Virus record (IMG/VR): IMGVR_UViG_3300042922_000911
Span: 1 to 64,000 of that record
Origin: a virus
Strand: one strand, 5' to 3'
Length of the DNA stretch: 64,000 nt
Shown here: in pieces, positions 6,890 through 60,464 of the stretch
Position numbering within the stretch: the first letter of the stretch is position 1
Layout: each line of letters opens with the position of its first letter
Notes under the pieces: generated by a model
What the model saw: only the letters and a program-made list of their open reading frames with translations
Told to the model about the DNA's origin: nothing
Database searches by the model: none
Position numbers and translations under genes: made by a program

Positions 6890-7327
6890 GGCAGCGTCCT
6901 CTTTTTGGCTCTTGGTTACACAGGATTCCATTATTCTACACCTCCGTCGGGGTCGTTTGCATCAGGCAGATCGGACAAAACGGCCGAAGGGTCAGGAATG
7001 CGACGCCACGCGCATCCGAAGAGCTGCGCGAGGCGGGCCGCATGCTTGTCTGCTTCCTCGGGATTCCACCAGCTTGTGACCGTTTCGCGCTCGTCGCCCC
7101 TGACGGCCTGAATCTTCCAGATGCCGCCCGAATCGAGGTCGCGGAAAATTTGCAGCTCGACGACCTGGGCGGGCTTGGAGGTGCGCGAGGGAACCGGCGT
7201 GGCCGGGGCTTTTCGGGTGGTTGGCATGTGGTGGCCTTACCTTTCGTTACACAGGATTACACAGGAAAGTTACACAGGGCGCGGATTCGCGCTCGATCGC
7301 CCGTTGGGTTTAGGGGCCTGGGCGGGT

Positions 7328-7624
7328 TTAGGTGCCGGCCTTCCAGTCGAGCCGGAAGATCGTGCCGATCGTGTCGCGCTCGGCCGTCTGCTCGCCGGGG
7401 ATGGCTTCTTGCCGGATGGCGTTGGTGAGCTGCTTGGCCGCGTCGTCGGATGCGAGGTAGCTCGCGGCCGTGGCGATCGCCCGAATGGCTTGGTACACGG
7501 CATCGGGGCCGATGGCCCTGACCTCGACGGCGACGCCCTCGGGCGCGGTGCGTCGGATGGCCTTCGCGATAGCGCCCGCGATAAGGTGCGGGTCGGTGGC
7601 GCGGCGTACCTTAATGACTTCCAT
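7328..7624 (-). CDS. spoVS: Stage V sporulation protein S homolog (Alba-like fold)
   Basis: MEVIKV..DPHLIAGAIA..EVRAIGPDAVYQAIRAIATA..ERDTI aligns with SpoVS MEILKV..NPNSVAGALA..EIQAIGAGALNQAVKAVAIA..ERTAI; AGGAG SD. Confidence 0.8.
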   Translation of the reverse strand: MEVIKVRRATDPHLIAGAIAKAIRRTAPEGVAVEVRAIGPDAVYQAIRAIATAASYLASDDAAKQLTNAIRQEAIPGEQTAERDTIGTIFRLDWKAGT

Positions 7625-8971
7625 GCGGCGGCTCCTGCTGCGGAAAGGGGGAGGGGCAACCTCACGGCTGGCCCAATTTCCGTAGGATAGCAGCATGGCG
7701 ACGAACGCCCCCTTTTTTCTGTCACACAGGCCCGGCGAGGCCGATCGCGTGGGCGACCTCCCCGCCCTGCTGCCGTATGGTGTCGGCCACGACCTCGACG
7801 GCCTCGCGCAGGCCGCGCAGCTCGCGCAGCTTCGCAAGCTCAATTTCGGCCATGACGCGGGGTATCTCGTACAGTTGAAGGTCTTTGACCTTGGCGGCAA
7901 GCGCGTCGAGGTCGTCGTTATCGTTCAGCTCAGCCATTCGTGGGCCTCCTTGCACTCGGGGCAGGGGTTGGTGTCGTCGTGGCCGTGTTCCTCCCGCATG
8001 GGGCAGTTTTCGAGGTGGTCTTCGGCTTTGATGGTCTTCGCCCGGCCCTCGTCCATGACGGCGAAGTAGCGGGTAAAGAACGCGCCGATCGCCCGCATCT
8101 GCCCGGCGTCGAGCTGGGTGTACCCCGGCGGTTGGCCGGGCGCGGCCGGGGGCGTGTACACGTCGCACACGGGCATCATCGAATCACGGTCGCCCGACGG
8201 GTCTTTGACCCACCGGATCGAGGCTACCAGCCCGTCATTCAGGGCGAGAAAGTGATCAGTCGCCATGGGGGTTCTCTCCTTTCAGGGCCTCGACGGCCTT
8301 GTGCAGCTCGACGTGTTCAAGCGCCCGATCGAGCGCGTCGAAACGCTCGCGCAGGTTCGCCCGGCACTTCGCCACGTCTTCGGCCTTCACCTCGTCGCGG
8401 GCGAAGTTCGCCGCGAGCGTGACGGTTCCGGCCACGATCTTCCGAAGATGCTCGGCGGTGTAGGCGACGTGTTCCAGCACGGCAGGATCGAGGGGCCGCG
8501 CTGGCCTGTTTGGGGTGTCTGTCATGGTGTCCTCCCGGCGCGGCTTGCTGACCGCGCCTTTACGCATTCTAGGTGAGCAGGCACCACGCCCGAAGGCGTG
8601 GCGCATGCGAGGTGGTGTTGCGGGTCTACCGGCTCGCCGCAGAGGTGGCAAGGCCCCTCGGCGGCGAGCGACTTCCAAGGGTTCACGCCGTCAGGCGCTC
8701 CCCGGCAGCGACGATCGCCTCGTCCCATGGCCCGGTGCAGGTCGAGCCGATCGGCTCGCAGGCCTCGGCGTCGTAGATGGCGACGCCCGTGCTGTCGGCG
8801 AGCAGGTTGAACCACTCGTCGCCCACGCGCACTTGCACCACGGCCTCGCTGGTCGTGTTGCCGAACCAGATGCTATTGCCCACCTCGTCGAAGCCCTGCG
8901 CCTGCGCGGCTTCGCGCAGGGTGTCGGGCGTGAGGGGCGTTTTAGCTTTGAAACCGAACATGGGGGCCTCC

Positions 8972-9232
8972 TTAGAAGCGGTTGACGCGGGCCTTCAAGT
9001 CGGCCTCGGTCATGGGGGCGAACGTCACGCGGATTCCGGCGATCGTCTTTTTCAGCGCGGGCAGTTCGTAGTCGATGAAGTCGCTGAATTGGATGGGGGC
9101 GAGCTGATGAACGCTGCTGTGGCCGTACTTGGCGAAAAGATGCTCATGAACGTCCTCGTTGCTCAGCCCGAGGCGCTTGGCCGTGCCCCACAGAAGGCGG
9201 AGCTGCTTGGCGGTGAGCTTGGTTTCGGTCAT
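8972..9232 (-). CDS. Mu gp16/GemA-like (DUF1018) protein
   Basis: QLRLLWGTAKRLGLSNEDVHEHL..YGHSSVHQL pattern. Confidence 0.55.
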   Translation of the reverse strand: MTETKLTAKQLRLLWGTAKRLGLSNEDVHEHLFAKYGHSSVHQLAPIQFSDFIDYELPALKKTIAGIRVTFAPMTEADLKARVNRF

Positions 9233-9351
9233 GGGGCATCCCTCCGTTACACAGGAATCTCGATGCCTGTATATTACACAGGAAAAGCCCCCGGCACACC
9301 GAGCGGCCGGGGGAAATTTCCTGTGTAATGCGACGAAGGGAAACCAAGGCG

Positions 9352-9828
9352 CTAGAGCGGCCCTTGCCAGGTGAACAGCACAAGGTCTTTTTGAAACTGG
9401 CGGCGCACGAAGCCTTTCAGTTCGCGCACGCCAAGCTCGCGGCGTTTCTTCATCCCGCCCCAAACCCATTCGATCGTGCCATCCCAAAGGCTTCCGTCCT
9501 CGGTCGTGACGCTCACGGTGTCGCCGAGCCTGGGCGGGCGCGTCAGCTTCCAGTGGCACACGATCGCCGTCTGATCGGTGAGCGACACGCCCGGCGGGTT
9601 CACGCCGCTCACAAGCTCGTCGGCCGGCAGCTCGCGAAGCATCAATTCGGCCCCCTCGAGCGCCGAGCGGATCACGTAGTCGCGCACCGGGCCGGTCGCG
9701 TAGCCCGCGGCCCCGCCGAGGATCGTCACCTCGGCTTTCCACTTCCGGCCGCGCGCGAGGTAGCGCACGCGCAAGTCGGTGAGCTGCGTGCTTACCGGGC
9801 TGGCGTTCAGGGCTTCCCACAGTTTCAT
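9352..9828 (-). CDS. Hypothetical protein
   Basis: ORF directly downstream of dnaN with GGAGG SD. Confidence 0.65.
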   Translation of the reverse strand: MKLWEALNASPVSTQLTDLRVRYLARGRKWKAEVTILGGAAGYATGPVRDYVIRSALEGAELMLRELPADELVSGVNPPGVSLTDQTAIVCHWKLTRPPRLGDTVSVTTEDGSLWDGTIEWVWGGMKKRRELGVRELKGFVRRQFQKDLVLFTWQGPL

Positions 9829-9829
9829 G

Positions 9830-10978: not shown

Positions 10979-11096
10979 GGGGTTCCTTTCCAACACAAGG
11001 GGCCGGAACCACGGGGTTCCGGCCGTCGAGGCGCTATGCCGCTAAGGGAGCGGCGCTGTAAGGGGTTGCGGTAGCCATTTCCGCAACCATTGTACC

Positions 11097-11525
11097 CTAA
11101 ATCGTGCCGTCGGCGTCACGACATACGGGGCAGACGCAAGGCCCCGCCTCGCCTATCACCCGGCCAATGCCCTCGCACTCGCTGCACTCCCCGAGGGCAA
11201 CGAGGTCGAGCGCGCGCACCGCGTCGGCCGCTTTCACCTCGGCCTCGTCGATGGATCGGCCGCGCCGCCAAATGGTCAGGTCGGGCACGGGGAGCTGACG
11301 CTTGCCGACCTTCGTCGTGAGGCCGGTCAGCTTGAAGCCGTACACCCGCGCGGGCCGCGCGAGGTACAGGCTGACGAGGTAGGCGCGTAAGGCCTCTTCC
11401 TCGGGCGTGTCGCGATCGGCGAACAGGCGATCGCACAGCGCGCGCTCGGCGAGCTTGATGCGCTCTTCCAGCGCGGGCATGGTGATCGGCGCGTAGGCCT
11501 TCGGGGTCGCGGTAGTGGTAGCCAT
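11097..11525 (-). CDS. Hypothetical protein with C-terminal Zn finger
   Basis: CSECEGIG..CVCPVC. Confidence 0.6.
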   Translation of the reverse strand: MATTTATPKAYAPITMPALEERIKLAERALCDRLFADRDTPEEEALRAYLVSLYLARPARVYGFKLTGLTTKVGKRQLPVPDLTIWRRGRSIDEAEVKAADAVRALDLVALGECSECEGIGRVIGEAGPCVCPVCRDADGTI

Positions 11526-11741
11526 GGGGGTTCTCCTTTCAATCGGGGGTGGGGTCGTCAGGGGGCGCGGGCTCGGCCGTCGCCTCGGGGGGCGGGTTCT
11601 CGGGCTCGTATTCCCAGAACCCATGCCCCTCGTCAGAAACCGGGGTGAAGTACATGTCGCCCACGTTTCAGCCCTCCGTTACACAGGGAAGCGTTACACA
11701 GGGACGTTACACAGGAAAGGCCCCGCGCGGGGGCCTCGGGT

Positions 11742-12014: not shown

Positions 12015-12127
12015 GGGGGTTCTCCTTATATGAGGGGGAGGGGCGTTCCACCTGGGAACAACGCCACGTTAGCGGTTTCCTGTGTAACAAACACCGGCCA
12101 TCATGCCCAAAGAAATTACACAGGGCG

Positions 12128-12168: not shown

Positions 12169-12174
12169 GCTCCC

Positions 12175-17595: not shown

Positions 17596-18191
17596 TGATC
17601 GCCGTTTCCATTCGCCTGCGCCCGCGCGGCGGCAGCATCCTCGCCGACCCGCGCCGAATCGCAGCTCTTCGCAACGTCGAGAATTACCCGGCCACCGCGG
17701 CGGCCGTCGCGCGCCTGACCCGCGACGCCCAAAAGACCATGATGGGCGCGGTTCAGGGCAAGCGCGTTTTCTGGTCGGGCGGCAACTTCAAGGTCAACCG
17801 CGTGTCGGGCGCGCTCCACGGGGCGATCCTGGGCGGCTACCGCTACCCGTGGCGCGGCAACCCCCTCGCGGGCGCGCTCGAGGTGAAGCACAAGCACTAC
17901 AACTTTGTTACACAGGGAACCCGCGCCTACGACATGAAGCCGGGCCTGCTGCGGGGCCGCTCGGCCCGCGTGAGCAAGAAGGGCGTGCTGTACGCCGTCG
18001 TGCCGATCAAACTGCACCCCGAGGAACGCTGGTCGGCCGTGGTGTACCGCGTGGTGACGCAGTTCTCGAAAGGCTGGATTCACCCCGGCACGCCACCCCG
18101 CCGGATCGACCTGTACACCCAAGAAGAAATGAGGCGCACGGCCGCGCGTCGGCTTCGTGACGCGCTTAAGCAAGACATGGGGATGGTCTAA
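17595..18191 (+). CDS. Neck/tail completion protein
   Basis: GTRAYDMKPGLL..WIHPG; synteny. Confidence 0.65.
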   Translation: MIAVSIRLRPRGGSILADPRRIAALRNVENYPATAAAVARLTRDAQKTMMGAVQGKRVFWSGGNFKVNRVSGALHGAILGGYRYPWRGNPLAGALEVKHKHYNFVTQGTRAYDMKPGLLRGRSARVSKKGVLYAVVPIKLHPEERWSAVVYRVVTQFSKGWIHPGTPPRRIDLYTQEEMRRTAARRLRDALKQDMGMV

Positions 18192-18733
18192 TGCACACGC
18201 CCGAGAATTTCAGCTTCAAGCAAGCCGTCTACGATCGCCTAAAGAAGCGGCTTCCCAACAATCCAAAAACCGGCGAGTTCCGTGTCATAAAAAGCCATCC
18301 CCACGACAACAACCTGCTACCATGCCTGTCAGTTACACAGGCCGGGGGCGGCCTGGGCACCCAGACGATCGGCGAGGAACACGGCACCGTCAAGCTCGAC
18401 GGCGAGTGGTTCGGCGTCGAGGGCACGATGTACCGCGAAACGCTGCACATCACGGTCTGGACCTACCACCCCGATCACCGTGACGACCTGGCGGTTGCGA
18501 CCCGCTTCGCGCTGTGGCGCATCCTGAAAGAGCTTTCTGACGAGTTCGGTATCGCGGAAACGAGCATGTCGGAAGACGGCGACGGCAACACCGCCGACGA
18601 CGACCAGAACGCTCCGCAAGAGCTGTACCTTTTCAATTTCACGCTGACGGCCCTAGTTCCTCTCGAGGAAATGACGCCTTTAGGGCCTCCTACCGATGTG
18701 GTGTACACCGTCGCCTTTGGTGACGGGGAGTAA
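18191..18733 (+). CDS. Tail terminator-like protein
   Basis: Immediately upstream of the sheath gene. Confidence 0.6.
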   Translation: MHTPENFSFKQAVYDRLKKRLPNNPKTGEFRVIKSHPHDNNLLPCLSVTQAGGGLGTQTIGEEHGTVKLDGEWFGVEGTMYRETLHITVWTYHPDHRDDLAVATRFALWRILKELSDEFGIAETSMSEDGDGNTADDDQNAPQELYLFNFTLTALVPLEEMTPLGPPTDVVYTVAFGDGE

Positions 18734-22475: not shown

Positions 22476-25400
22476 ATGAACGAGAAGCTGGCGTTTGAAG
22501 CCGAGATCGACACCAAGCGCGCCATCGGGCAGCTCGGCTTGATCGAGGCCAAAGTGCGCGAGATCGCGAAGACGACGGCCCCCGCTCACGGCGGGGGCAT
22601 CGAGCCGATCGACAGCGTGAGCTTCAAGCGCAGCATGGGCGAGGTCACGACCGGCCTCGGCAAGCTCAAGACCGTTCAGAAGGACTTTCAAGCCGACCTC
22701 AAGCGGGGCATGGATGCCCTCGCCGACAGCCAATCGGCGAAGCTCCGCACCATGGTCACGAACCAGACGCAGGCGTTCAGGCAGCTCAACCAGGAGATCG
22801 CCCGCGCGCAAGCCAACGTCAACGCCCTCGCCCTCGCGCAGGGCGCGGCCTCGCGCGTGCCGTCCGTTACACAGGGCGGGGCGCTCATTCCTGTTACACA
22901 GGGAAGCCGCGCCGTGGTGCCATACGGTGCCGGCGGGGCGCTGATGGGGCAGACCCGCGCGCTCGCGCCGGGGCGCAACGAGGTTATTCACCGCTGGGCG
23001 CACGGCCACCACCCCAACGAGCGGCGGGGCGGCAGCGTCAGCCTGCTCGATTCCATGATGGGCGTCGGCGTGGGCGGGGCTTCCATGGGCGGCGGCGGGT
23101 CCGGCGGCGGGCTGCTCGGCGGCGGGGCCTCGGCGCTCGCGGCTGGCGGCATCGGGGCTGCGATCGCCACGGCCGGGCGCAGCCTCATGGGCGCGCTCGC
23201 GAAGAGCGTGGGGCTCGCCGCGGCGGGCCTGCGTTTCCTCGGCCCCGTGGGCGTCGGCACGGCCCTCGCGCTCGGGTCGGTGCCCGCGCTCAACGACCGG
23301 GCGAATCGGAACGTCGCGCCCGGCACCGACACCGGAAACGAGCTCGTCGATCGCACCATGCGAAACCTCGAGCTGCAATACCGCGACATGAAGCGCGAGG
23401 TCGAGGGCAAGAAAGACGACGGCAAGAACACCGCTCAACGCATCCTCGACACGATCGGCGGGTTCTTCTTCGGCTACGCGGCCGAGGGCAAGACCCTCGA
23501 CAACGGCCCGAGCCAGCCCGGCGCTCGCGACACCCTGCCCGGCGGCGGCGGCGGCGTCCCGCCGAAGGGGCCGTCGATCGGGCCGGATGGCTTGCTGACG
23601 CCCCCGCCCGGCCGCTGGACGGGTGCGCCCTCGATCGAGAGCCTGACGCGCGAGTACGCGGCCGAGCAGGCGAAGGCGGTTGCCGGCGAGAAGGACGAGG
23701 CCACCGGCGACGCCAAGGGCGGCATCTGGGAGAACCTGAAAGACTGGTTCACCAACAACAAGGCCGTCGCCGGCCTGGGCGCGGGCGTCGTCGGCGCGGG
23801 TGCCGCCATGGCGCTGATGGGCGGGCCGAAGATGGCGGCCATGCGCGGGCTTATGGGCCGCGTGGGCGGCCTCGGGTCGCTGCTCGGCGGCGGCGGCATG
23901 ATGTACTATGCGAACCGCGCGGTCGCATCCGTTGCCGAGCAGGGCGTGCAGGAAGCCGACATGGGCACGCGCCTCGCTGGCGACCAGGACACCGAGGGGC
24001 TTTTCGACAAGATCCACCGGCGGGCGAAGTTCCTGCAATTCACTCAGCTCGAGGCCAATTCGGCCGCTGACGCCTTGGGCGGTCAGATGGGGTCGAAGGA
24101 CCTCGTTTTCGACACCGAAAGCTCGCTCAAGTTCTCGCGCGCGCTCGGCCTGTCGGCTGAACACGGCGCGAGCATGTTGGGCGGCGCGGGCCGCGCGGGC
24201 GTCATGCAGCAGGGCGGGGTCATGAGCTTCACCCGCCAGCTCGCGGCCGGATTCGACCAGTCGAAGATGGTCGGCCGTCAAACGGAAGTCACCGAGGGCA
24301 TGATCGACGTGCTGACCGACATGGCCGGGCGCGTCGGCGCGCTCGGCGAGGGCGAGCGGTCGAGCGCGATCGCCATGCTGACGCACCTCAACAAGTCGGG
24401 CAATCCGATGTTCCAGGGCGCGGCCGGGGCGCAGCTCGTCAAGGGCATGGGACACGCCTTCCAGCCGGGCGCTGGCGGGAACGTCGTGGCCGATGCCAAC
24501 TTCGCCATGGCCATCCAGTCGGCGGCCGTGAAGTCGGGTAAGCCGCTCTCGTTCGTTGACCTGAACATCAGGCGCGAGGAAGGCGCGAGTACGCGCAACC
24601 TGCAAGCCCTCGGCGAACACATGAACAGCCGCATGAAGGGCGATTCCAAGCAGATGCAGGACGCCCGAATCGCGTACCTGCACGATCAGATGGGCGGATC
24701 GCTCAACTACACGCAGGCGCGCGACCTGTTGAAGATCACCAAGAACCTGACCGACTTCGGCGACCAGAAGGCCATTAACGAGATCGTCGGCGAAGACGTG
24801 CTGAACAAGCAAGTGGACAAGAACATGGACCACAAGAACGCCCGGCTCGCCCGTCAGACGGCCGTCATGGCCGACGACTTGCGCCGCTCGGTCGGCGAGG
24901 CCCTGTTGCCGACGTTCAAGCTGATTCAGACGGCCACGACGACCCTCGGCAAAGACTTGATGGATCACGCCAAGCCGGCGATCGGCGAGTTCAACGGCGC
25001 GATCCTCGAGCTGATTCCGACCGTCAAGGAAGCGGTCGGGGCGATCGCCGACGGCGTGGCGACCCTCGGCGGCAAGGTCGCCGAGGCCGTGGTGCCCTCG
25101 GCGCACGCGGCCGGCGCGCTGCCGGGCGTGGGCCGGCTGCTCTCGGGCGGCGGCAACGGCAAGTTCAACATGGCCGTCGGGCACCAGTCCGTCACCGGGC
25201 ATCAAGACGCGCTCAGGCGCATGGCCGCATCCGGCATCGACATGGCCGAGCTGGAAAAGGTGTCGGCCGAAACGGGCGTGCCCGTCGATCTGCTCTTGGG
25301 CGTCGCCAACCAGGAGAGCCGGGGCGACGCGACGCGCATCGGCCCGAAGGCCTGGGATTCGGGCTACAACCGCTGGGACCGCGCGCGCGGGCTGATGCAG

Positions 25401-26552: not shown

Positions 26553-26577
26553 GCGTTACACAGGAAGGTTACACAGG

Positions 26578-29171: not shown

Positions 29172-29244
29172 TGACCTATTCCCGCGCCTGGCGTGGGTTC
29201 AGGTCATTTCGTTACACAGGACGCCGTTACACAGGAGGCGACCC

Positions 29245-31942: not shown

Positions 31943-32820
31943 TGCCCGAGCAGTTTCTTACACAGGAACAGCGCCAGGATATGTATCGGCGCATCTTTGC
32001 GGCGATTCCTCGCACCTTCCTCGACCCCAAGCACCCCGATAACGAGCTGATTGTCGGGGCGATCGCCTACGCCGTGGCCTACACCGAGGCCCACTGGCTC
32101 GAAATCGAGCGCGAACAGTTCCTCGACACGGCAACGATCGACGGCCTGACCCGCTTCGGCAACTGGTTCGGCGTGCCGGTCGAGAACGGCGAAGACGTGG
32201 AAGTGTACCGGCAGCGGCTTCAACAGGCGCTTTACGGCCCGCGTCAAACCATCAAGGCGATCGAGAACGTCGTCGGCGCGGCCACGGGGCTGACCGTCAG
32301 GGTTCATGAGGTCGGCCGCGACATTGTGACCATGAACCGGGGGGCCTGGACCGGCAAGAAGCTCCTGGGCGAAAGGTACTGCTGGGCGGTCTTTGAGGTC
32401 GTCACCGAGGGGCAAACGAACAAGGTCGTGAAGTTCATGGACCGCATTCGCGCCGCCGGCACGCGCTGGCGGCACATCGAGCGCGTCTATCACTCGATCC
32501 TGCACGACCTCGCGCCCGGCGGCGTGATCAGCCGCGAGCGCACGAAACACTGGTCGCTCGAGTTCCCCGAGATTCCCTTCCCGCTCTTCCCCGCGACGGC
32601 CAACCGCGAACACCTCGCGGCCCGTGGCTCGATGTGGGGCCGCGACTTCACGAAGCACTCTTACCGGCACGTCGAGCGGGCGCAGCTCATTCGGCCACTG
32701 GACGTTACACAGGAAGAAACGGAACACACAGTCCTGTGTAACTTCTTGCCTGACGACGCCCCGCTCTTCGCCTGGAACGATTCGGCGAGCCTGTGGGATG
32801 AATCCCGCTGGGCCAACTAG
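31942..32820 (+). CDS. Baseplate wedge (gpI-like) protein
   Basis: FLDTAT..LTRFGNWFGV..GEDVEVYRQRL..RAAG. Confidence 0.75.
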   Translation: MPEQFLTQEQRQDMYRRIFAAIPRTFLDPKHPDNELIVGAIAYAVAYTEAHWLEIEREQFLDTATIDGLTRFGNWFGVPVENGEDVEVYRQRLQQALYGPRQTIKAIENVVGAATGLTVRVHEVGRDIVTMNRGAWTGKKLLGERYCWAVFEVVTEGQTNKVVKFMDRIRAAGTRWRHIERVYHSILHDLAPGGVISRERTKHWSLEFPEIPFPLFPATANREHLAARGSMWGRDFTKHSYRHVERAQLIRPLDVTQEETEHTVLCNFLPDDAPLFAWNDSASLWDESRWAN

Positions 32821-32856
32821 GTTACACAGGAAAGACGTTACACAGGAGGACGCCCC

Positions 32857-35457: not shown

Positions 35458-37716
35458 ATGGCCTACAATCCCGAATCCCCCTTCGCCGTCCCCGGCTTCG
35501 CGCTCGAGCCCCTGTTGCTCGAGGACGTGGGCGACCCCGCTGCGGGGCCGTCGGCCAACCTGAAACAGGCCTTCGACGTGTTGCGCCGGTTCAGGGGCTA
35601 CCAGACGACGAACGCGGCCAGGAACGCCCTCGCTGACCCACAGCCCGGCGACTTCGTGCTGATGCTCGCAAGCGGTGCGCGGCTGCGCGTGGACGTGTAT
35701 TACACAGGAAACGGCTGGACCCCTTGGGGCGACACCCCGGCCGGGGCGCACACGCGCCTGACGCCGCTCGTCGAGAACCCCACAGGCAGCGGCCGGTACG
35801 ATCTCTTCGGCTCGGGGTTGCATGAGCGCGTCTTCGTCGAGCGCATCCCCCAATTTGAAGGCGTCGAGCGGGATTACACCGTGGATACGGCCACGACCCC
35901 ATGGCAAGTCGTCTTCAACGAGGGTAAGAAGCCGCTCGAGGGGCGCACGGTCTTCGGGGCCGTGGCGCAACCGGACCTCACCAGCACGAACGCCGACACG
36001 CTTTTGGGCGCGCTCCCCGACAAGGGGCAGCTCGGCGGGGGCGTGGTCGTGCGCCAGGCCAACGGGACGATCGAGGGCGTCGGCGGCTCCAACGCCAACA
36101 GCCTCGACGGCTACGATTCGCTCGTTTCCCCTGGTCACGCCCCCAACAAGATCCCCGTTCACGACGACGACGGCAACCTCGACGCCACCACCCTCGGCGG
36201 CTTCGCGCCCTCGGGCGGCAACGTCGGCTCGCGGGTCGTGGTGCGCGGGGCCGACGGCTCGATCGCGGGCTACGGCGGCACCGGCGGCGTCAACGGCGAC
36301 ACCCTCGACGGCTTCGACACCGTGGTAAGCCCGAGCCACGCGGCCGACAAGGTGCCGGTTCACGACGAGCTCGGCGGCCTGGACGCCACCACGCTCGAGG
36401 GCGCTGCGGCCTCGACCGCGGCAACCGCCGACGCGATCGCCAAGCGCGACGGCAGCGGGGCGATCGCCGGGGCATCGAGCGACAAAGACACCGTGGACGG
36501 CTACACGACGGCCGTCAGCCCCACGCACACGGCCGACACCATCCCCGTTCACGATGCCGACGGCAACCTCGACGCCACCACCCTCGGCGGCGCGGCCCCC
36601 GACACGGCCGCGATCGCCGGGGCGATCGTCAAGCGCAACCCAGACGGCACGATCACGGGCCTGTCGAGCGACAAGGACACCGTAGACGGCTACACGACGG
36701 CCGTCAGCCCCACGCACACGGCAAGCACCATCCCGGTTCACTCGGCGACCGGCGGCCTGGACGCCACGACCCTCGGCGGGGCCGCGCCCTCGGCGGTCGT
36801 CGCCGGCAACACGATCGTCAAGCGCGACGGGTCGGGCGGAATCGCTGGCGTGAGCAGCGACGCGGCGACCCTCGACACCTTCGACACCGTGGTTTCGCCC
36901 ACGCACACGGCGAGCCGCATCCCGGTTCACGACGCCGACGGCAACCTCGACGCCACAACCCTCGGCGGGGCCGCGCCGGCCACGGCCGCCACGGCGAACG
37001 CCATCGTCAAGCGCAACGCCGACGGCACCATCACCGGGGCGGTTCTGACGACCGTGGACGGCTACAACACGGTCGTTTCCCCGACCCACACCGCCAACAA
37101 GATCCCGGTTCACTCGGCTGCCGGTGCGCTCGACGCCACCACCCTCATGGGGGCGCTCCCCGCCACCAGCGGCCCCGACACGATCCTCAAGCGCAAGGCC
37201 GACGGCACGATCGAGGGCATCACGGCGAGCCCCGGCAAGCTGGAATTGGTCTATTACGGCTACATGGCGGCCGACAAGCAGATCGCGGCGTCGGGAACCA
37301 CGGGCTTCCTGTGTAACACCGAGGTCGTCGATACCCTCGGCCTCACCTGGACGACCAGCGGCGGCAAATACTACTTCACGATGCCATCGGGCAGCACGGG
37401 CGAATACCTCGTCGTCTTTGGGCACGCCATGAACGCCATGAGCTCGGGCGTGATCACCATCGGCATGGGCTTTACGGAGTTTGACACCGGCATGGGCGAC
37501 TACGACCCGGCGAACGATCGCGTCATCGGCCATTACAGCTCCAGCCGCGCCGACGCCTGGACATTGAGGTTCATTCAATGCCACCGGGTAAAGCTGACGG
37601 CGGGCGAGCGGTGGGGCGTGTTCAACGCCAATATCACCGGCATCACGCGCGGCATCAGCGTCAAGTGGCTCGCCGGGCAAAACAACACCTTCATTCGCAT
37701 TTACCGAATCCTGTAA
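35458..37716 (+). CDS. Tail fibre 2 (paralog of fibre 1 with a different tip)
   Basis: Shares the N-terminal domain and six repeats; divergent C-terminus. Confidence 0.8.
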   Translation: MAYNPESPFAVPGFALEPLLLEDVGDPAAGPSANLKQAFDVLRRFRGYQTTNAARNALADPQPGDFVLMLASGARLRVDVYYTGNGWTPWGDTPAGAHTRLTPLVENPTGSGRYDLFGSGLHERVFVERIPQFEGVERDYTVDTATTPWQVVFNEGKKPLEGRTVFGAVAQPDLTSTNADTLLGALPDKGQLGGGVVVRQANGTIEGVGGSNANSLDGYDSLVSPGHAPNKIPVHDDDGNLDATTLGGFAPSGGNVGSRVVVRGADGSIAGYGGTGGVNGDTLDGFDTVVSPSHAADKVPVHDELGGLDATTLEGAAASTAATADAIAKRDGSGAIAGASSDKDTVDGYTTAVSPTHTADTIPVHDADGNLDATTLGGAAPDTAAIAGAIVKRNPDGTITGLSSDKDTVDGYTTAVSPTHTASTIPVHSATGGLDATTLGGAAPSAVVAGNTIVKRDGSGGIAGVSSDAATLDTFDTVVSPTHTASRIPVHDADGNLDATTLGGAAPATAATANAIVKRNADGTITGAVLTTVDGYNTVVSPTHTANKIPVHSAAGALDATTLMGALPATSGPDTILKRKADGTIEGITASPGKLELVYYGYMAADKQIAASGTTGFLCNTEVVDTLGLTWTTSGGKYYFTMPSGSTGEYLVVFGHAMNAMSSGVITIGMGFTEFDTGMGDYDPANDRVIGHYSSSRADAWTLRFIQCHRVKLTAGERWGVFNANITGITRGISVKWLAGQNNTFIRIYRIL
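36091..37220 (+). repeat. Six ~189-bp tandem coding repeats
   Basis: Same repeat family as in fibre 1. Confidence 0.85.
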
Positions 37717-37823: not shown

Positions 37824-39086
37824 ATGGCGAACGAGCATCCCGCAAGCACCATGCCCACTACCTTCGCGACTGACGCGGAAGTAGCAGCGGCCATCACCGC
37901 GCACAACAACGCCTTTCACGCGCAGGACATTCCGCAGCGCCCCCGCCGTCGCAACAGCGTCGAGGCGGGGCGCGTCAGCGCGGCCGATGGCCTGCCCAAC
38001 TTCATCGAGGCGGGCGCGGGCCTGAAAGCGACCCTGCGCGGTGCCGCCGTGCCGGCGGTCTTCAACTTCGCGGCGGGCTACGACCAGGGGCGACCCGTCG
38101 ATAACCGCGTGACGATCGACGAGGACCTGTCGAACCTGTGGACGCTCACGGCGAACGCGACGAATTACCTGTTCCTCGAGCGGCAGAGCGACAACACGCT
38201 CGTCCCCTTGGCCTACACCGTCAGGCCCTCAGACGGCATGACGCTCCCCGCCACGGCGGCGCTCAACCAGCACCACTACGTCATTCCCGAGGGGCGCATG
38301 TACGTCTGCACGCAGGCCTCGACCGGCGGCGGCAGCTCGAAAGTCAACGCGGCCACCACGGCGAACGCCCAATCGGGCGGCGCGCAGGGCGGCTACCCGG
38401 CGTCGAACGCCTACGACACCAACGGCGCGAGCGGCTGGCGCTCGTCGCAGCTCGGGACCATGGTCTTCGATCGCGCCTGGATCGGTCAGGTCTTCGCCAC
38501 GCGCAAGCGCATCACCGAGGTAGAAATTACACAGGAAACAGCCTCCAACAACCGCATTACGAGCTGCAAGGTCGAGGTGAGCGACAACAACTGGGCCACG
38601 GCCACCACGCTCGGGACGTTCCCCCTGGTCGGCGGCTACAACAAGATCACCATCCCCTCGCCGAGCCTGGGCCAGTCCATTCGCGTGAAAGCGAACGCCA
38701 GTACGGGTTCTTCGACGCCCTGGATCGTCTTCACGGTCAAGTTCAACGAGGACGTGCCGATCGTCGGCAACCCGCCGGTCTTCGCGACCAAGGAGCGCGT
38801 CTGCGTGGGCGAGGCCGTCACCGGCGCGACCTCAGTCACCGGAACGACGGGCTACGCCCTCAACGGCGAGTACGCGACCGGCCGGCGCGCGCTCAGCCCC
38901 GGCGTCTTGAACACCATCAAGCACGCCCTCGGCACGACCAGCGCGCACCTGACCCTGCGCGGGGCCACGGCTGCCGGCGGCGCGCTCGGGCCGATCACCT
39001 ACACCAGCATGGACCACCTGACGCTCAACCTCACGCCTGACGGCTCGGTCGTCGAGGGCGAGGCGATCGTCACGCGCGGCTATTAG
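37824..39086 (+). CDS. Tail protein with discoidin (F5/8 type C)-like domain
   Basis: ASNAYD..WRS..WIGQVF..ITEVEI..VEVSDN..W. Confidence 0.7.
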   Translation: MANEHPASTMPTTFATDAEVAAAITAHNNAFHAQDIPQRPRRRNSVEAGRVSAADGLPNFIEAGAGLKATLRGAAVPAVFNFAAGYDQGRPVDNRVTIDEDLSNLWTLTANATNYLFLERQSDNTLVPLAYTVRPSDGMTLPATAALNQHHYVIPEGRMYVCTQASTGGGSSKVNAATTANAQSGGAQGGYPASNAYDTNGASGWRSSQLGTMVFDRAWIGQVFATRKRITEVEITQETASNNRITSCKVEVSDNNWATATTLGTFPLVGGYNKITIPSPSLGQSIRVKANASTGSSTPWIVFTVKFNEDVPIVGNPPVFATKERVCVGEAVTGATSVTGTTGYALNGEYATGRRALSPGVLNTIKHALGTTSAHLTLRGATAAGGALGPITYTSMDHLTLNLTPDGSVVEGEAIVTRGY

Positions 39087-43941: not shown

Positions 43942-44430
43942 ATGAGCATCATTGAAACGGTCACGACGGCCGTGCAGGGCCTTTCGGGGTTCCCGCCTTT
44001 CCTCGGCCTGATGGCGCTCGCCGCGCTCGACACCGCCGTTCTCGTCTGGGCCGCGTGGCACGCCCATGAGCTCGACAACACCGAGATCACCGACGGCATG
44101 CAGAAGTTCGCGCTGGTCGTGGGCGTCTTCATCCTCGGCCAGTCGCTCGTCACGACCTCGCCCATGCTCGCGTTCTTCGTCGATCCGCTTTACGCGGCGG
44201 CGGCCGTGAACGAGGTGCTGTCGATCCTCAAGAACGTGCGCCTGGGGCTCGAGGCCCAAGGGAAGCCCGTGCCGATCTTCGTGGGCGTGCTGACCGGCAG
44301 GCTCTCGCAGTTCCAAGAAGGCTTGCTGCCCGCCGACTTCGCGGCCGCCGCGGCGACGCCCGGCCCCACAGCGCCCCCGGCGATCGCCGCCGACCCTGTT
44401 ACACAGGAAGGGCACGACCAGGGCGAATGA
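43942..44430 (+). CDS. Holin (TcdE/holin-4-like)
   Basis: Hydrophobic helices; NEVLSILKN..PVP motif; precedes the amidase. Confidence 0.75.
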   Translation: MSIIETVTTAVQGLSGFPPFLGLMALAALDTAVLVWAAWHAHELDNTEITDGMQKFALVVGVFILGQSLVTTSPMLAFFVDPLYAAAAVNEVLSILKNVRLGLEAQGKPVPIFVGVLTGRLSQFQEGLLPADFAAAAATPGPTAPPAIAADPVTQEGHDQGE

Positions 44431-44552
44431 CCGGGCTTCCTGTGTAACACCCGAGAGCGTTACACAGGAAGCCGACCCCGACCCCGCATTACACAGGAAA
44501 CCCCCGACGCTCGCCGCAAAGACGCCCCCGGCTCGTTACACAGGAGCCGCAC

Positions 44553-45269: not shown

Positions 45270-45976
45270 GCGCGCTCGACGAGCTCAAGCGCGCCCGGCT
45301 GACCTCGGTTCTGATCGTCGCGGCCTTCCTCGTCGGCCTGGTCGTCGCCTCGCTGGTCAAGTGCCATCTGCCACCGCCCGGCGATCGCCAGCCCCTTCGC
45401 CCCCTGCCCGCTGTGACCGACGGCCCCGCGCCGTCGGCCACGCCCCCCGCGGCCACCGCGACGGCGGCCGTCAAGACAAGGGTCGTGATCGAGCGGCCCG
45501 TGCCCCGGCCGGTTTCCTGTGTAACAAGCATCCCGCAGAATGTTACACAGGAAGCCTCGAGCGGGGCGCACCTCCCCGACCCGGCGATCGCCCCCGGTGC
45601 GTCGGGCATCCTCGCTCAGCCGCTCGAGGTGGAACGCATCATCATCGAAACCGAGGGCATCAGCACGGCCGTCGCCCCGGTGCCGACCCCGCCTCCCCCT
45701 GTGTACGTTACAACGGATGCCCGGCCGGGTGCCTTCGGCGTCCTGGTCGGCACCATGCCGGGTGTCGTGGCGCTCGACTACCAGTTCGCTCGAGGCGAGC
45801 TTTTGGGGCACACCATCGGGGCCTCAACAATCGTTAACGGGCGAATGTTGGGCGTCGGTGGCGGAATTTCCCTAGTCGAAATCCACGACCGTTTATACTT
45901 GGGCGCAGGCGCATACCAAGAGTATAAGCTGATTCCCGACCCTGGCCTGTACATCGGGGCGGGGTGGCGTTTTTAG
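45266..45976 (+). CDS. Membrane-anchored lysis-cassette protein (spanin-like candidate)
   Basis: N-terminal TM helix, Pro/Thr-rich linker, C-terminal amphipathic strands ending YIGAGWRF. Confidence 0.6.
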   Translation: MSALDELKRARLTSVLIVAAFLVGLVVASLVKCHLPPPGDRQPLRPLPAVTDGPAPSATPPAATATAAVKTRVVIERPVPRPVSCVTSIPQNVTQEASSGAHLPDPAIAPGASGILAQPLEVERIIIETEGISTAVAPVPTPPPPVYVTTDARPGAFGVLVGTMPGVVALDYQFARGELLGHTIGASTIVNGRMLGVGGGISLVEIHDRLYLGAGAYQEYKLIPDPGLYIGAGWRF

Positions 45977-50961: not shown

Positions 50962-50997
50962 GCTCATAGGTATTTTGTTACACAGGAGAGCCGGAAA

Positions 50998-52811: not shown

Positions 52812-52815
52812 ACCC

Positions 52816-53930: not shown

Positions 53931-53935
53931 GAAGG

Positions 53936-56207: not shown

Positions 56208-56855
56208 ATGGAGAACCACAACCCCTTAACCCTCGACGAGCTCGCCGAAGAGCTCGCGCAGACGAGAACCGCGTGCGACGAGCTGGAAGCAGCCGCCGGC
56301 CGCTACGCGAGCATCTTCGACCGTTTCATGCTGCCCTTAGCTGCCGCCGCGGGCATCCCCGGCGTGCAAGACCCCGAGGTAGTCTTGCCCGAGGCGATCG
56401 CCCGGCTTGTTACACAGGACGGGATGATCGACCGGCGGAACGACCGGCTAAACCAGCCTGACGACGGCTGGAAGGGTGCATGCATGGCCCTCGCCCAGGT
56501 CGTCGCCGACAACCCGCGCTTGGGCCACCTGATGCCCATAGGGCTCGAGGTCAGCGTCACCGACCTCATTACACAGGCGATCACCTACCTGTCGCGCGAC
56601 CTCGACAATGCCGAGGCCGAGGTGAAGAGCCTGCGCGAGCGCCTGCAAAGCGAGCAGCAAGCCCACGGCGGCACGTTCGCGCGCCTGAAAGCGGCGCAAC
56701 GAGAGGCGGGCGCGGCCTACGACATTCTCGGCGACGCCTCGCTCGCGGTGAACGTGGCGAGTGACGTGCTTCGCAGCGTTCGCGACGGCGTGCTGCGCGA
56801 AGACGTGCCCGAGGGCGTGGCAGAAACGGCCGTTCCCGAGGCCCCTGAATCGTAA
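56208..56855 (+). CDS. Hypothetical coiled-coil protein
   Basis: GGAGG SD; helical. Confidence 0.65.
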   Translation: MENHNPLTLDELAEELAQTRTACDELEAAAGRYASIFDRFMLPLAAAAGIPGVQDPEVVLPEAIARLVTQDGMIDRRNDRLNQPDDGWKGACMALAQVVADNPRLGHLMPIGLEVSVTDLITQAITYLSRDLDNAEAEVKSLRERLQSEQQAHGGTFARLKAAQREAGAAYDILGDASLAVNVASDVLRSVRDGVLREDVPEGVAETAVPEAPES

Positions 56856-57037: not shown

Positions 57038-59470
57038 ATGATCACGGCAAACGCGCAAAGCGTGCTGGAAAAGCGGTATTACCTGAAAGACGACAGCGGC
57101 GTTCTGATTGAGAAGACGCCCGAGGACCTGTGGGGCCGCGTGAGCCGCGCCGTCGCTGAACCCGAGCGGGTTTACAGCGCCGAGGCCTACGACCTGGCCC
57201 AAGCCAACTTTTACGGCATTCTGCTCGCGGGCGACTTCACGCCCAACAGCCCGGCGATCGCCAACGCGGGCGCGCGCACCGGCCAGTGTTCGGCGTGCTT
57301 CGTGCTGCCGCTCGAGGACGACCTGGGCGGCATCTTCGACACCGTGAAGCACACGGCACTCATTCACCAGACTGGCGGCGGCACCGGGTTCAGCCTGTCG
57401 CGCCTGCGGCCGAAAGACGACTTCGTGCGCTCGACCGGCGGCAAGTCGAGCGGCCCGCTCACCTTCGCCGACGTGCTGAACGCGGCCACCGAGAGCATCA
57501 AGCAGGGCGGCATGCGCCGGGGTGCCAACATGGGCATGTTGCGGATCGATCACCCTGACATTCTCGACTTCATCGAGTACAAAGACGACCTGACCAAGCT
57601 CACCAACTTCAACATCAGCGTCGCCGTTACACAGGCGTTTCTCGACGCCTACGACGCCGGCACCAGCTACGACCTGATCAACCCGCGCACCGGGGCCGTC
57701 ACCGGAAGCCTCGACGCCCGCACGGTCATGAAGAACATCGTTCACCACGCCTGGAAGACGGGCGAGCCGGGCCTTGCCTTCATCGACCGCATGAACGAGT
57801 ATTGCCCGGTGCCCTGGATGGGGCAGTACGAGGCGACCAACCCGTGCGGCGAACAGCCCCTTTTGCCCTACGAGAGCTGCAACCTCGGCAGCATCGACCT
57901 CGCGAAGTTCGTCGTCGAGACACCGACCGGCCCCGCGCTCGACTGGAACCGGCTGGCGTGGGCGATTCACGTCGGGACGCACTTCCTCGACAACATCGTG
58001 TCGATCAACCAGTTCCCGATCCCCGAGCTGAAACGCATGAGCGACCTCACGCGCAAGATCGGCCTCGGCGTGATGGGATGGGCGCGGCTGCTGCTGCTGC
58101 TCGGCATCGGTTACGGCAGCGACGAATCGCTCTCGCTCGCCCGTCAGGTGGCCTCGTTCCTCGACTACCATTCCAAGCTCGCGAGCATCGAGCTTGCCAA
58201 GTGGCGGGGCAGCTTCCCGGCACGCGCCGGGCACGAAGACGAGTTCAATGCGTTCTTCGACCGCATCTGCGCCGAGCGTCAGGCCAAGCCCGACCGTCAC
58301 CCGTCGTGCGACTACATCAGCCTCGCCGAGCTGCAACGGCAGTACGGCATCAGGAACAGCAACACGACGACCGAGGCCCCCACGGGCACGATCTCGATTA
58401 TCGCCGGCACCACGGGCGGCATCGAGCCGATCTTCGCGCTGGCCTTCAAGCGGTGGCAGGCCGACATGCACATGCTGGATTCGGAACCGACCTTTGAAGC
58501 GTTCCTCGCCAAGCGCGGGTTCGACGCCGAGCGCCTGGTCGAGCTGCTGCGTCAGGTGGACGAGAACCACGGGACGCTGACCGGCCTCGACGTGACCCCG
58601 TACAGCGCCCATGAGCAAAGCATCATCGACGCGGCCCGCCCCATCTTCACGGTGGCCCATGACGTGACGCCGCGCCAGCACATCGAAACGCAGGCGGCGT
58701 GGCAGGACTTCAACGATAGCGCCATCAGCAAGACCGTCAACTTCGACGAGAGCGCGACCGAAGACGACGTGGAAGAGGTGTACAAGCTCGCCATCCTGCG
58801 CGGCTGCAAGGGCGTGACGGTTTACCGCAACAACAGCCGCAAGCACCAGCCGCTCAGCGTCAGCGAGAAGCCCGCGGCCGACCTTGCGGCCCCCGAGGTG
58901 GCGGCGGCGATCGCCCGCGCGGCCGACCGCATTCTCGCCACCGAGCCCCGCGAGCGTCGCACCGACCTGTACGGGTACACCCGCGAGGTCAAGACCGGGG
59001 AGGGTAACTTGTACCTGACGCTCAACTACGACGAGCAGGGGTTGCGCGAGGTGTTCGGCAACCTCGGCCGCTCGGGCGGCACGCTCCACAGCCTCACCGA
59101 GGCGATCGGCCGGCTGGCCTCGCTCGCCTTGCAGTTCAACGTGCCCCGCGACGAGGTGGCGCGTGCCCTCGTCGGCATCCGAGGCCCCGAGCCGGTCGGG
59201 TTCGGCCCTCGACAGATTCTCTCGATCCCCGACGCCATCGGCAAGGCGATCGCGTCAGCTCCCCGTTCCCTTAACGGTGAGCTGCCCACGATGGAAGCCC
59301 CACGCGAGGCGATCGCCAAGCAGCCGGTTCCCGTCGCTGCCGAGGCCAAACGGCTCGAGGCCGTCGCCGTCTACGGCAAGTCGCCCGATTGCCCTGAATG
59401 CAGCTCTCGCCTCGACTTCGGGGAAGGCTGCATGACGTGCCATTCGTGCGGCTACTCGAAATGTAGCTAG
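57038..59470 (+). CDS. nrdJ: Class II (B12-dependent) ribonucleotide reductase with C-terminal Zn ribbon
   Basis: PNSP, CSACFV, GGGTG, RRGANM, TNPCGEQ, CNLGS, APTGT, SKTVN, C-terminal CPEC..CHSCGYSKC; no beta subunit adjacent. Confidence 0.92.
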   Translation: MITANAQSVLEKRYYLKDDSGVLIEKTPEDLWGRVSRAVAEPERVYSAEAYDLAQANFYGILLAGDFTPNSPAIANAGARTGQCSACFVLPLEDDLGGIFDTVKHTALIHQTGGGTGFSLSRLRPKDDFVRSTGGKSSGPLTFADVLNAATESIKQGGMRRGANMGMLRIDHPDILDFIEYKDDLTKLTNFNISVAVTQAFLDAYDAGTSYDLINPRTGAVTGSLDARTVMKNIVHHAWKTGEPGLAFIDRMNEYCPVPWMGQYEATNPCGEQPLLPYESCNLGSIDLAKFVVETPTGPALDWNRLAWAIHVGTHFLDNIVSINQFPIPELKRMSDLTRKIGLGVMGWARLLLLLGIGYGSDESLSLARQVASFLDYHSKLASIELAKWRGSFPARAGHEDEFNAFFDRICAERQAKPDRHPSCDYISLAELQRQYGIRNSNTTTEAPTGTISIIAGTTGGIEPIFALAFKRWQADMHMLDSEPTFEAFLAKRGFDAERLVELLRQVDENHGTLTGLDVTPYSAHEQSIIDAARPIFTVAHDVTPRQHIETQAAWQDFNDSAISKTVNFDESATEDDVEEVYKLAILRGCKGVTVYRNNSRKHQPLSVSEKPAADLAAPEVAAAIARAADRILATEPRERRTDLYGYTREVKTGEGNLYLTLNYDEQGLREVFGNLGRSGGTLHSLTEAIGRLASLALQFNVPRDEVARALVGIRGPEPVGFGPRQILSIPDAIGKAIASAPRSLNGELPTMEAPREAIAKQPVPVAAEAKRLEAVAVYGKSPDCPECSSRLDFGEGCMTCHSCGYSKCS

Positions 59471-59500
59471 AAGACCACCACGACAGGAAAAGACCACCAC

Positions 59501-60331
59501 ATGAAACCCGTTACCCTCAACCTCGTTAGCTATTCAGGCGGCAAGGATTCCGGCGCGCTTGTGCTGCACCTCATGGAGCAGGGCGTGCCGAATCTGGTGC
59601 TGGTGTTCTGCGATACCCATTGGGAACACCCGGCGACCTACCGCTATGCCTACGAGTTCGCCCAGGCCGTCGGCCTGCGCCTGCGGGTCGTCGATTCCGA
59701 GGGCATGGTGAACCTGTGCCTTCGGAAGAAGCGCGCCCCGTCTACGCGCGTGCGGTTCTGCACCCAGGAATTGAAGCTCAAGCCGTTTGAACGCTACGTC
59801 AAGACCCTGCATGAGCAGGGCTTCGATACGGTCGTCTGGATCGGCGTGCGCGCGGAGGAAAGCCCCGCGCGCGCCAAGATGCCCGAGAGCGAGCATTCGG
59901 ATTACTACGATTGCGAGGTGCGACGCCCCATCCTCGGTTACACCATCGACGACGTGAAGGCCATTCACGCCCGCCACGGCCTCGAGCTGAACCCCTTGTA
60001 CAAGCTCGGCATGGGCCGCGTGGGCTGCATGCCCTGCATCATGGCGAATAAGGACGAGCTGAAAAGCATTGCCGACCGCTTCCCCGAGGTGTTCGACAAG
60101 GTGGCCGATCTTGAAGACAAGCTCGGCCGCACGTTCTGGACGGCCGGGGACACCCCGACCCGCTTCTGCTCCAAGGTGGCCGTCACGAAAGACGGCCGCC
60201 ATGTGCCCGTGCCGACCGCGCGGGACGTGAGGACGTGGGCGACGACGGAGAGGGGCCAGGCACCGGGGCAAGTCCCGATGTTTGAACCCCCTGTGCCCGC
60301 GTGCAGTTCCAAATACAACCTATGTGAGTGA
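59501..60331 (+). CDS. PAPS-reductase/DndC-like PP-loop protein
   Basis: SYSGGKDS, DTHWEHP, FCTQELK, GVRAEES..R, RVGCMPC. Confidence 0.85.
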   Translation: MKPVTLNLVSYSGGKDSGALVLHLMEQGVPNLVLVFCDTHWEHPATYRYAYEFAQAVGLRLRVVDSEGMVNLCLRKKRAPSTRVRFCTQELKLKPFERYVKTLHEQGFDTVVWIGVRAEESPARAKMPESEHSDYYDCEVRRPILGYTIDDVKAIHARHGLELNPLYKLGMGRVGCMPCIMANKDELKSIADRFPEVFDKVADLEDKLGRTFWTAGDTPTRFCSKVAVTKDGRHVPVPTARDVRTWATTERGQAPGQVPMFEPPVPACSSKYNLCE

Positions 60332-60334
60332 CGA

Positions 60335-60365
60335 AAGGGAGGCCGGATGCGGCCTCCCTTTTTTT
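60335..60365 (+). terminator. Rho-independent terminator
   Basis: AAGGGAGGCCG-GATG-CGGCCTCCCTTTTTTT. Confidence 0.85.
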
Positions 60366-60464
60366 ACCAATTTAGTTACACAGGAAGTGACGACCTTGGT
60401 CACTTTTTATTTACCGAAACAGTTACACAGGAAAAGCCACCACACAACCCTTAAGGAGCGCCCC

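Follow-up and report, generated by a model that had tools for sequence, protein, structure and literature searches.

Exact DNA words that recur throughout a phage genome have led to mechanisms before, as with the T7 promoters, the L5 stoperators, Chi, and the nicks of T5 and tf, the purpose of which is still unknown. L5-type repressors bind as monomers to more than 20 asymmetric 13-mers and block elongation in one orientation only (PMC9283540). In phage tf an exact 9-mer occurs 14 times, always on the top strand although the genes form two convergent units, with very few near-miss variants; their density is about one per 3.3 kb, and relatives of tf use a slightly different word (PMC3517423). 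Here we describe the 9-nt word TTACACAGG in an uncultured phage, IMG/VR record IMGVR_UViG_3300042922_000911 (95,822 bp, 66% GC). The window analysed comprised bases 1–64,000 of this record; numbering is common to both, and features beyond the window are marked as belonging to the record. The word is a real, strongly selected, cis-acting site system. The initial annotation had called it a candidate protein-DNA site system; its reality and a polarity that follows the chromosome were upheld, while the possible roles were only narrowed. We tentatively read the copies as asymmetric sites at which a DNA-binding protein of the phage docks and forms polar roadblocks, in the manner of stoperators.

Abundance, exactness and selection of the word

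All 41 positions previously listed for the window were exact matches to TTACACAGG, 35 on the plus strand and 6 on the minus strand, whereas dinucleotide-preserving shuffles produced a mean of 0.13 copies with a maximum of 2. The whole record holds 56 copies (48 plus, 8 minus), a density of one per 1.7 kb. A third-order Markov model gave an expectation of 0.16, so that the over-representation first claimed against about 0.2 expected copies was substantiated. Enrichment was approximately 350-fold, and a reversed control word had 0 copies in the record.

The consensus extends to (G/A)TTACACAGG(A)(A), or 11–12 nt, the preceding base being G or A in 55 of 56 copies and the following base A in 43 of 56. 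Nothing else was conserved within 20 nt on either side, where the information content was near zero, and no conserved partner element was found at any fixed distance. Only seven one-mismatch variants occur, about three of which are credible; three of the seven are CTACACAGGAA, located in or near arrays. A literature search for TTACACAGG returned primers only.

Selection acts on the nucleotide word inside genes, where 23 of the copies lie. Synonymous-codon shuffles yielded 0.35 sense and 0.23 antisense copies, compared with 19 and 4 observed. Peptides of the form [VILF]-T-Q-[GEDAV] in plus-strand genes were spelled by TTACACAGG, with the rare GTT/ATT and ACA codons, in 18 of 21 cases, as were 4 of the 6 peptides compatible with an antisense copy. 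The V/I-T-Q reading originally noted in coding sequences was borne out, 19 of 20 sense copies lying in the frame nTT-ACA-CAG-G. Comparison with orthologues from the two nearest relatives, G001 and G002, indicated two routes to a site. One is synonymous recruitment: the peptide SVTQA at the 18333 copy is conserved in G001, and this copy was therefore made by rare synonymous codons. The other is amino acid change (R-D to T-Q) or insertion, one site lying in an insert that G002 lacks. The shuffles, the peptide counts and the orthologue comparison together place the nucleotide word itself under selection. The near-uniform frame largely reflects the frames that proteins tolerate, since the alternatives require TTA/AGG or Cys codons or a stop.

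Orientation, spacing and placement of the copies

Codon statistics identified 107 genes in the record. Genes 3–25 (2202–12014, the left arm) are on the minus strand and all remaining genes on the plus strand, giving a plus-transcribed right arm of about 84 kb. Across the chromosome 86% of copies (48/56) are on the plus strand. This holds in the left arm, where 10 of 12 copies are plus, that is, antisense to the genes; all four left-arm arrays and the lone in-gene copy face this way. Right-arm copies divide into 38 sense and 6 antisense. Copies in genes, and those that double as a ribosome-binding site (RBS), were set aside in the polarity test because they have their own reasons for sense orientation. 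The remaining intergenic arrays numbered 10 plus to 1 minus (binomial p of about 0.006, one-sided, versus random orientation), and relative to local transcription 5 were sense and 5 antisense. An orientation that follows transcription is rejected by the left-arm arrays and in-gene copy. The distribution instead fits an orientation that follows the chromosome, as the initial annotation had held.

The copies form 29 loci, about one per 3.3 kb, of which 17 contain two to five copies at direct spacings of 10–60 bp, consistent with the runs first reported. Distances between direct neighbours were 10, 13 (three times), 15 (three times), 16, 18, 27 (twice), 29, 33 (three times), 47 (three times), 51 and 60 bp. 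No 10.5-bp phasing of direct copies was detected (Rayleigh p = 0.21). The distances clustered near multiples of ~16.5 bp (R = 0.63–0.64, p = 0.001–0.01 after scanning periods of 8–25 bp), and as equal-length spacers were unrelated in sequence by inspection, duplication of blocks does not account for this register. The register suggests an oligomeric protein array, of which such a register would be expected, rather than independent enzyme sites. Among the reverse copies, 6 of 8 lie 12–37 bp from a forward copy.

The tandem arrays, the register and an operator-like divergent pair (Table 1) speak for a bound protein rather than a nickase or an enzyme that moves along the DNA. A phage nickase that cuts the plus strand of mature DNA at the word, comparable to the nicking of T5, tf and phiKMV-like phages, gives the closest match to the one-strand rule: the exact 9-mers of tf keep to one strand over convergent units (PMC3517423), and the word described here likewise has a sharp consensus, a chromosome-wide polarity and lineage specificity, with the same density of loci. 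Nicking at tandem copies 10–18 nt apart on one strand would, however, free short oligonucleotides, while the six reverse copies close to forward ones would produce staggered double cuts. Single sites spaced by kilobases are not the pattern, 17 of 29 loci being arrays; 14% of copies are on the other strand, against none in tf; and the ~16.5-bp register would have no reason. No nuclease candidate was found, the EndoVII/HNH-like match in the product of gene 3516–4502 spanning a zinc ribbon only. We consider nicking unlikely. Equally unlikely, in our estimate, is a chromosome-wide polar system in which protein arrays, built on the tandem 9-mers in the ~16.5-bp register and all facing one way, affect a machine that traverses the entire chromosome unidirectionally. 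This machine could be a rolling-circle fork, a packaging motor or genome-long read-through transcription, and the logic would be like that of Ter/Tus or KOPS and not of gene-by-gene regulation.

Placement relative to genes was far from random. Non-coding sequence makes up 8.5% of the genome and holds 33 of 56 copies (binomial p = 2 × 10−21), and 15 of the 55 gaps of at least 12 bp contain the word. At five genes (starting at 29245, 32857, 44553, 50998 and 80214) the last copy ends 8–11 nt before the ATG, and its AGG together with the next AG forms the RBS (AGGAG). These figures bear out the description of the sites as lying just before gene starts. Only six copies end 0–11 nt before an ATG. 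Right-arm arrays occupy the space from stop codon to next start codon. Along left-arm transcripts the order is hairpin, array, GGAGGG and start codon, with TTACACAGG opposite in sense to the gene. At the far end of the left arm, a plus-strand tail-fibre-like gene (841–2205) converges on and overlaps the first minus-strand gene (2202–2480) at 2202–2205; as the overlap is too tight to accommodate a terminator, rightward transcripts could continue into the left arm in antisense.

A separate promoter class, TGGCAGAAA-N26-TAnnnT, lacks a −35 element, has nine copies, all plus, and precedes structural, portal, reductase and polyvalent-protein genes. The arrays are not tied to it, with 3 gaps in common against 3.5 expected, both elements preferring large gaps. 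A sigma70-type two-element promoter built on TTACACAGG was also rejected, the second hexamer (16–18 bp) occurring in 2 of 56 copies only. As a single-element promoter for a phage-modified host RNA polymerase, like the T4 late promoters, the word would be suitably strand-specific, exact and placed before genes; tandem spacings of 13–16 bp would set the start site at the next copy, and left-arm copies would yield antisense transcripts. This is nevertheless very improbable. There is no partner hexamer, TAnnnT being found at −35-compatible spacing in 2 of 56 copies only, and −35-like hexamers upstream are at background level. Several last copies end 0–11 nt from the ATG, too close for a leader; three promoters packed into 30 bp would be unusual, as would arrays inside genes; and the TGGCAGAAA class already serves the structural genes. 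Neither a phage sigma factor nor an RNA polymerase turned up among the annotated proteins.

The use of the word as an RBS in five genes, and the arrays that follow two mapped promoter boxes within 5′ leaders, could also point to RNA. Here UUACACAGGA in right-arm leaders would be bound at the RBS by an RNA-binding protein or an antisense partner, and the exact complements in left-arm mRNA, ten of which lie 14–19 nt before start codons, could pair with it. In a bolder variant, these complements beside RBSs could pair with the right-arm leaders as an early/late antisense switch. The irregular, non-helical spacing would suit single-stranded recognition, and the inverted pairs that were folded gave 11–16-bp stems with z-scores of −2.4 to −7.4. 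Yet 23 copies are situated far inside coding sequence or at a distance from any start, two arrays are upstream of promoters, the variants show no wobble-type pattern, and neither a CsrA-like nor any other RNA-binding protein was recognised. An Rfam search of the window found no known RNA family. On balance an RNA-level element seems unlikely.

Distribution and candidate readers

A soil metagenome, stored as contigs, was the sole sequencing run found to hold the phage. No DNA-level relative was found among cultured phages, whose closest proteins reached at most 33% identity for the major capsid and at most 28% for the large terminase. Capsid alignment in IMG/VR identified the nearest relatives, G001 (157 kb, 54% capsid identity) and G002 (121 kb, 49%), neither of which contains TTACACAGG (0 copies). 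The initial annotation had looked to conservation in relatives as a check; on its face this result goes against it, but the comparison is a weak test at such capsid identities. G001 has words of its own. One is a strand-specific element of ~45 bp, GGGCCCCCAGGAACGGTTTTTTC ... GGATAGTAGATAGTAGGGAGGG, present 15 times ahead of genes (L034–L041, e.g. 32338, 34333 and 40207), which looks like a phage-specific promoter with a GGAAC motif of extracytoplasmic function (ECF) type. The other, CAAGGAGAACCGCC-ATG, stands ahead of 25 genes; with AAGGAGAACCCCC-ATG, the common start context of many left-arm genes in the present phage (5238–12014, minus-strand starts), it looks like a family-wide start-associated sequence. 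Repeated words in G002 proved to be repeated protein modules.

Database scans for the tandem pattern found no second example. Among the matches listed, a first IMG/VR scan gave mostly collagen-like repeats of low-GC giant viruses. With a stricter pattern the sole match was a phage of 35% GC, unrelated, whose single tandem repeat is degenerate. The stricter pattern had 15 scattered single matches in GTDB representative genomes, such as Phormidesmis tandem repeats. In JGI metagenomes 81 matches were obtained, the high-GC ones being unrelated tandem repeats with other periods and no proteins in common with the phage. Two high-GC prophage-like contigs with one tandem pair beside an integrase gene were also unrelated.

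Bacterial genomes were searched in three phyla (401 Cyanobacteriota, 401 Acidobacteriota, including the unpublished genome G464, and 301 Pseudomonadota), a set without Myxococcota, Gemmatimonadota or Deinococcota. The initial annotation had pointed out that a word equally abundant in the host chromosome would be a host signal; in these ~1,100 genomes it was not abundant, with a top density of about 1 per 50 kb. These counts bear on the idea of a polar signal, Chi-like or otherwise, that a one-way enzyme would read on a single strand; the enzyme could be a motor, a fork, or a helicase-nuclease that enters where packaging or rolling-circle replication leaves an end. An exact word with a polarity independent of transcription would be expected of such a signal; tandem copies would raise the chance of recognition, and copies would be written into genes wherever the protein tolerates them. 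An 18.6-kb site-free stretch (84107 through the end of the record to 6915) is bounded by a multi-copy array, though it is not significant (p = 0.07). Against the phage density of 1 per 1.7 kb, however, the bacterial maximum is very low, G001 and G002 are without the word, recognition over 11–12 nt is longer than for every known Chi, and the spacing register would be unexplained. We regard this reading as improbable. The site system is so far unique to this phage, which fits a phage-encoded reader co-evolving with its sites. Exactness, restriction to one phage and selection inside genes indicate such a specific reader.

Two other observations touch on the host. The word GCGATCGC occurs 92 times in the record, about 1 per kb and four times the synonymous-shuffle expectation, nearly always in two reading frames and with 2 intergenic copies; it is no proof of a cyanobacterial host because it is also enriched (about 1 per 5–6 kb) in non-cyanobacterial high-GC genomes. 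An Atlas lookup of the B12-dependent ribonucleotide reductase, for which the phage has a gene, gave no clue to the host.

DNA modification genes are prominent in the phage. A complete 7-deazaguanine set (DpdA-like, QueD, QueE and QueC) occupies 52020–54631 and is followed by a DNA methyltransferase (54867–56180) and a PAPS-reductase-like gene (59501–60331). A C5 cytosine methyltransferase is apparently split over two frames or pieces (63369–64000 and in the record to 65075); the region with its PCQ motif (63.4–63.9 kb) has no clean gene call, and its C-terminal part is at record 64095–65075. The word might be the target of these DpdA-pathway enzymes or methyltransferases, all encoded by the phage. 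Nothing in modification requires a 9–12-nt word, tandem arrays or one strand, however, and G002 has DpdA and a methyltransferase with 0 copies of the word. Phage DpdA systems recognise very short contexts, and much of the G is replaced. Of the explanations weighed, we give this one the least credence. The roles listed in the initial annotation are thus narrowed in favour of a bound protein, with a host Chi/KOPS-type signal and a modification target both disfavoured.

Candidate binders were taken from proteins unique to the phage, as judged by tblastn against G001 and G002 (Table 1). Of the binders suggested earlier, SpoVS (7328–7624) lost ground, being a poorer candidate because orthologues occur in both motif-free relatives. 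The 3516–4502 product, also suggested earlier, has suitable features in an AT-hook, a zinc ribbon and KGG repeats, and shows no visible nuclease motif. AT-hook-like GRP motifs occur in four phage-unique proteins (3516–4502 and record 65628–66578, 72653–72889 and 74323–74799), two of which have in common a Cys-x2-Cys ... DG ... Cys-x2-Cys zinc ribbon. The record 65628–66578 gene, adjacent to the terminase, probably encodes the small terminase; it has a helix-turn-helix-like N-terminus and two TTACACAGG copies in its linker. Record 68702–69076 and 73003–73446 are a paralogous pair with a common core, FE-x-(F/Y)H-x-ANP-x-VFE, one placed after the large terminase gene and the other after a 4-copy array of TTACACAGG. 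Pfam and PHROG scans of about 60 of the 107 proteins found no two-domain stoperator-type repressor and no integrase.

The phage is a myovirus. A 98-bp terminal repeat in the record most likely derives from circular assembly. The phage encodes its own beta clamp and a lambda-type replication module, consisting of Rep-O with internal iterons, a DnaC-like loader and SSB. The iterons, ~24 bp with a palindromic core CCCCAAAATGGGGA, are present as eight exact copies and one variant at 48470–48760, inside the Rep-O-like gene 48125–49345; iterons within the initiator gene are a lambda-style origin. Immediately upstream, at 47730–48047, is a further winged-helix gene of Rep-O type that stands alone.

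Table 1. Loci of TTACACAGG in the window, with promoters, annotated genes and candidate readers; 'record' marks positions beyond the window
Feature	Position	Strand	Context
Single copy	6916..6924	+	7 nt inside start of minus-strand gene 6242-6931; antisense, read S-C-V-T
Array of 3, spacings 10 + 13	7247..7278	+	Gap before minus-strand gene 6931-7227; antisense to local transcription
Array	9247..9328	++-	Inner + and - copies flank a GC-rich terminator-like hairpin; outer + copy 14 nt from ATG of minus-strand gene 8972-9232
Array of 3, spacings 15 + 13	11679..11715	+	Between hairpin after gene 11742-12014 and RBS of minus-strand gene 11539-11664
Back-to-back pair	12079..12124	- then +	Divergent control region (12015-12174); each copy faces its own arm; + copy (12116) adjoins TGGCAGAAA promoter box at 12128
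Copy in tail gene 17595-18191	17908..17916	+	R-D in relatives, T-Q here
Copy in gene 18191-18733	18333..18341	+	Peptide SVTQA
Pair, spacing 27	22867..22902	+	Inside 1358-aa tail lysin gene
Pair, spacing 13	26556..26577	+	Fills 25-bp gap; second copy abuts ATG at 26578
Pair, spacing 15	29212..29235	+	5' leader downstream of TGGCAGAAA promoter 29131; last copy gives AGGAGG for gene at 29245
Single copy	31958..31966	+	16 nt inside gene 31942-32820
Group	32705..32846	+-++	First two copies an 11-bp inverted pair in variable insert of gene 31942-32820; last two fill gap and supply RBS of gene at 32857
Single in-gene copy	35700..35708	+	Only sense copy in the other frame (Y-T-G)
Lone reverse copy	37308..37316	-	Inside gene 35458-37716
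Single in-gene copy	38527..38535	+	I-T-Q-E
Array, largest in window	44399..44544	+-+++	End of gene 43942-44430 to 8 nt before lysis gene at 44553; first two copies can pair into 12-bp stem
Inverted pair	45516..45551	-+	16-bp stem in Pro-rich linker of gene 45266-45976
Single copy	50978..50986	+	In 36-bp gap; supplies RBS of thymidylate-synthase-like gene at 50998
Two copies 159 bp apart	56410..56577	+	Inside gene 56208-56855
Copy in B12-dependent ribonucleotide reductase gene	57627..57635	+	V-T-Q-A
Pair, spacing 47	60376..60431	+	Flanks terminator-like hairpin; after terminator of gene 59501-60331, before gene at 60465
One-mismatch variant CTACACAGG(AA)	61506..61514	+	About 5 nt past predicted start of TGGCAGAAA promoter at 61455
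TGGCAGAAA promoters	12128, 12779, 29131, 37757, 56818, 61455; record 78222, 84476, 93853	+	
Major head protein	13931-15391		
Tail sheath	18748-20883		
Tail lysins			Include the 1358-aa tail lysin gene
Large terminase	record 66593-68674		
Portal	record 78301-79986		
Polyvalent protein			2903 aa
Candidate: AT-hook and ribbon-helix-helix-like protein, 78 aa	record 72653-72889		Gene ends in 4-copy array
Candidate: ribbon-helix-helix-like protein	5750-6073		
Candidate: stand-alone Rep-O-type winged helix	47730-48047		
Candidates: AT-hook/zinc-ribbon proteins	3516-4502; record 74323-74799		
Candidate: zinc-ribbon, lysine-rich protein	6242-6931		

A possible mechanism and its relation to known systems

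In the mechanism that we put forward, tentatively, the tandem asymmetric (G/A)TTACACAGG(A)(A) copies would be DNA-level docking sites for a sequence-specific phage protein, which would occupy about 29 loci, often as short arrays in the ~16.5-bp register. Once bound, it would form a polar obstacle or an operator aimed at rightward travellers; a polar effect is suggested because the site is asymmetric and oriented one way. The main traveller may be RNA polymerase on the 84-kb right arm, where arrays stand directly before RBSs, and each of the two divergent arms would have its operator in the back-to-back pair at 12079/12116. The sequence itself shows the sites, how sharp and how placed they are, their selection within genes, the polarity along the chromosome and the register; we infer, and do not observe, protein binding at the sites, the phage origin of the protein and the polar block.

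Several points weigh against this proposal. Four left-arm arrays face against local transcription, whereas known stoperators follow it, and to treat these arrays as blocks to rightward read-through would be ad hoc. The best-looking candidate binder, the 78-aa protein (record 72653–72889), is an ORFan for which no homologues were found, and its monomer fold was predicted poorly (predicted local distance difference test score, pLDDT, 59). There was no sign of lysogeny, and no integrase, in the proteins scanned. Copies deep in long genes have no obvious use for a regulator, the register is post hoc and rests on 20–22 distances, and a nickase or translocating enzyme would also explain exactness and one-strand polarity.

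The case is unusually clean, with an exact word, strong enrichment, selection that alters proteins, a direction tied to the DNA and a non-helical register. If a binder is found, it would provide a compact, programmable and orientation-dependent pair of DNA site and protein, and a test of stoperator-like silencing outside actinobacteriophages. If nicks are found instead, the arrays would reveal a new arrangement of something in phage DNA that is still poorly understood.

Compared with Cluster A stoperators (L5 gp71 and the TipsytheTRex repressor; PMC9283540), the word shares a genome-wide set of dozens of exact asymmetric sites, located mostly in short intergenic gaps with some at promoters, a strong orientation bias and a lineage-specific sequence. 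It differs in the length of the site (9–12 bp against 13 bp), in the tandem arrays and register at most loci, in its 23 copies within genes, and in the lack of a repressor homologue or sign of lysogeny among the proteins scanned. Orientation also does not flip with the minus-transcribed arm, and for this reason we claim only that the sites may work like stoperators. With the interruptions of tf, T5 and phiKMV-like phages (PMC3517423) it has in common an exact 9-mer that keeps mainly to one strand whatever the direction of transcription, few variants, a density of one locus per 3.3 kb and relatives that differ; unlike them, it has arrays, a minority of copies on the other strand, tight RBS placement and no nickase candidate. 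Chi sites, as used by RecBCD and AddAB, are likewise short, exact, independent of transcription and functional in just one orientation with respect to an end of the DNA, but they are abundant in the host, whereas the present word is at chance level in the bacterial genomes searched, is longer and has a spacing register.

A further likeness is to the start-associated sequences of Cluster K mycobacteriophages (Pope et al. 2011), reportedly a word just upstream of start codons that includes the RBS. Here too a conserved word immediately precedes start codons and includes the RBS, but only 5 of 56 copies double as an RBS, and the word is also found in arrays, in genes and antisense to left-arm genes.

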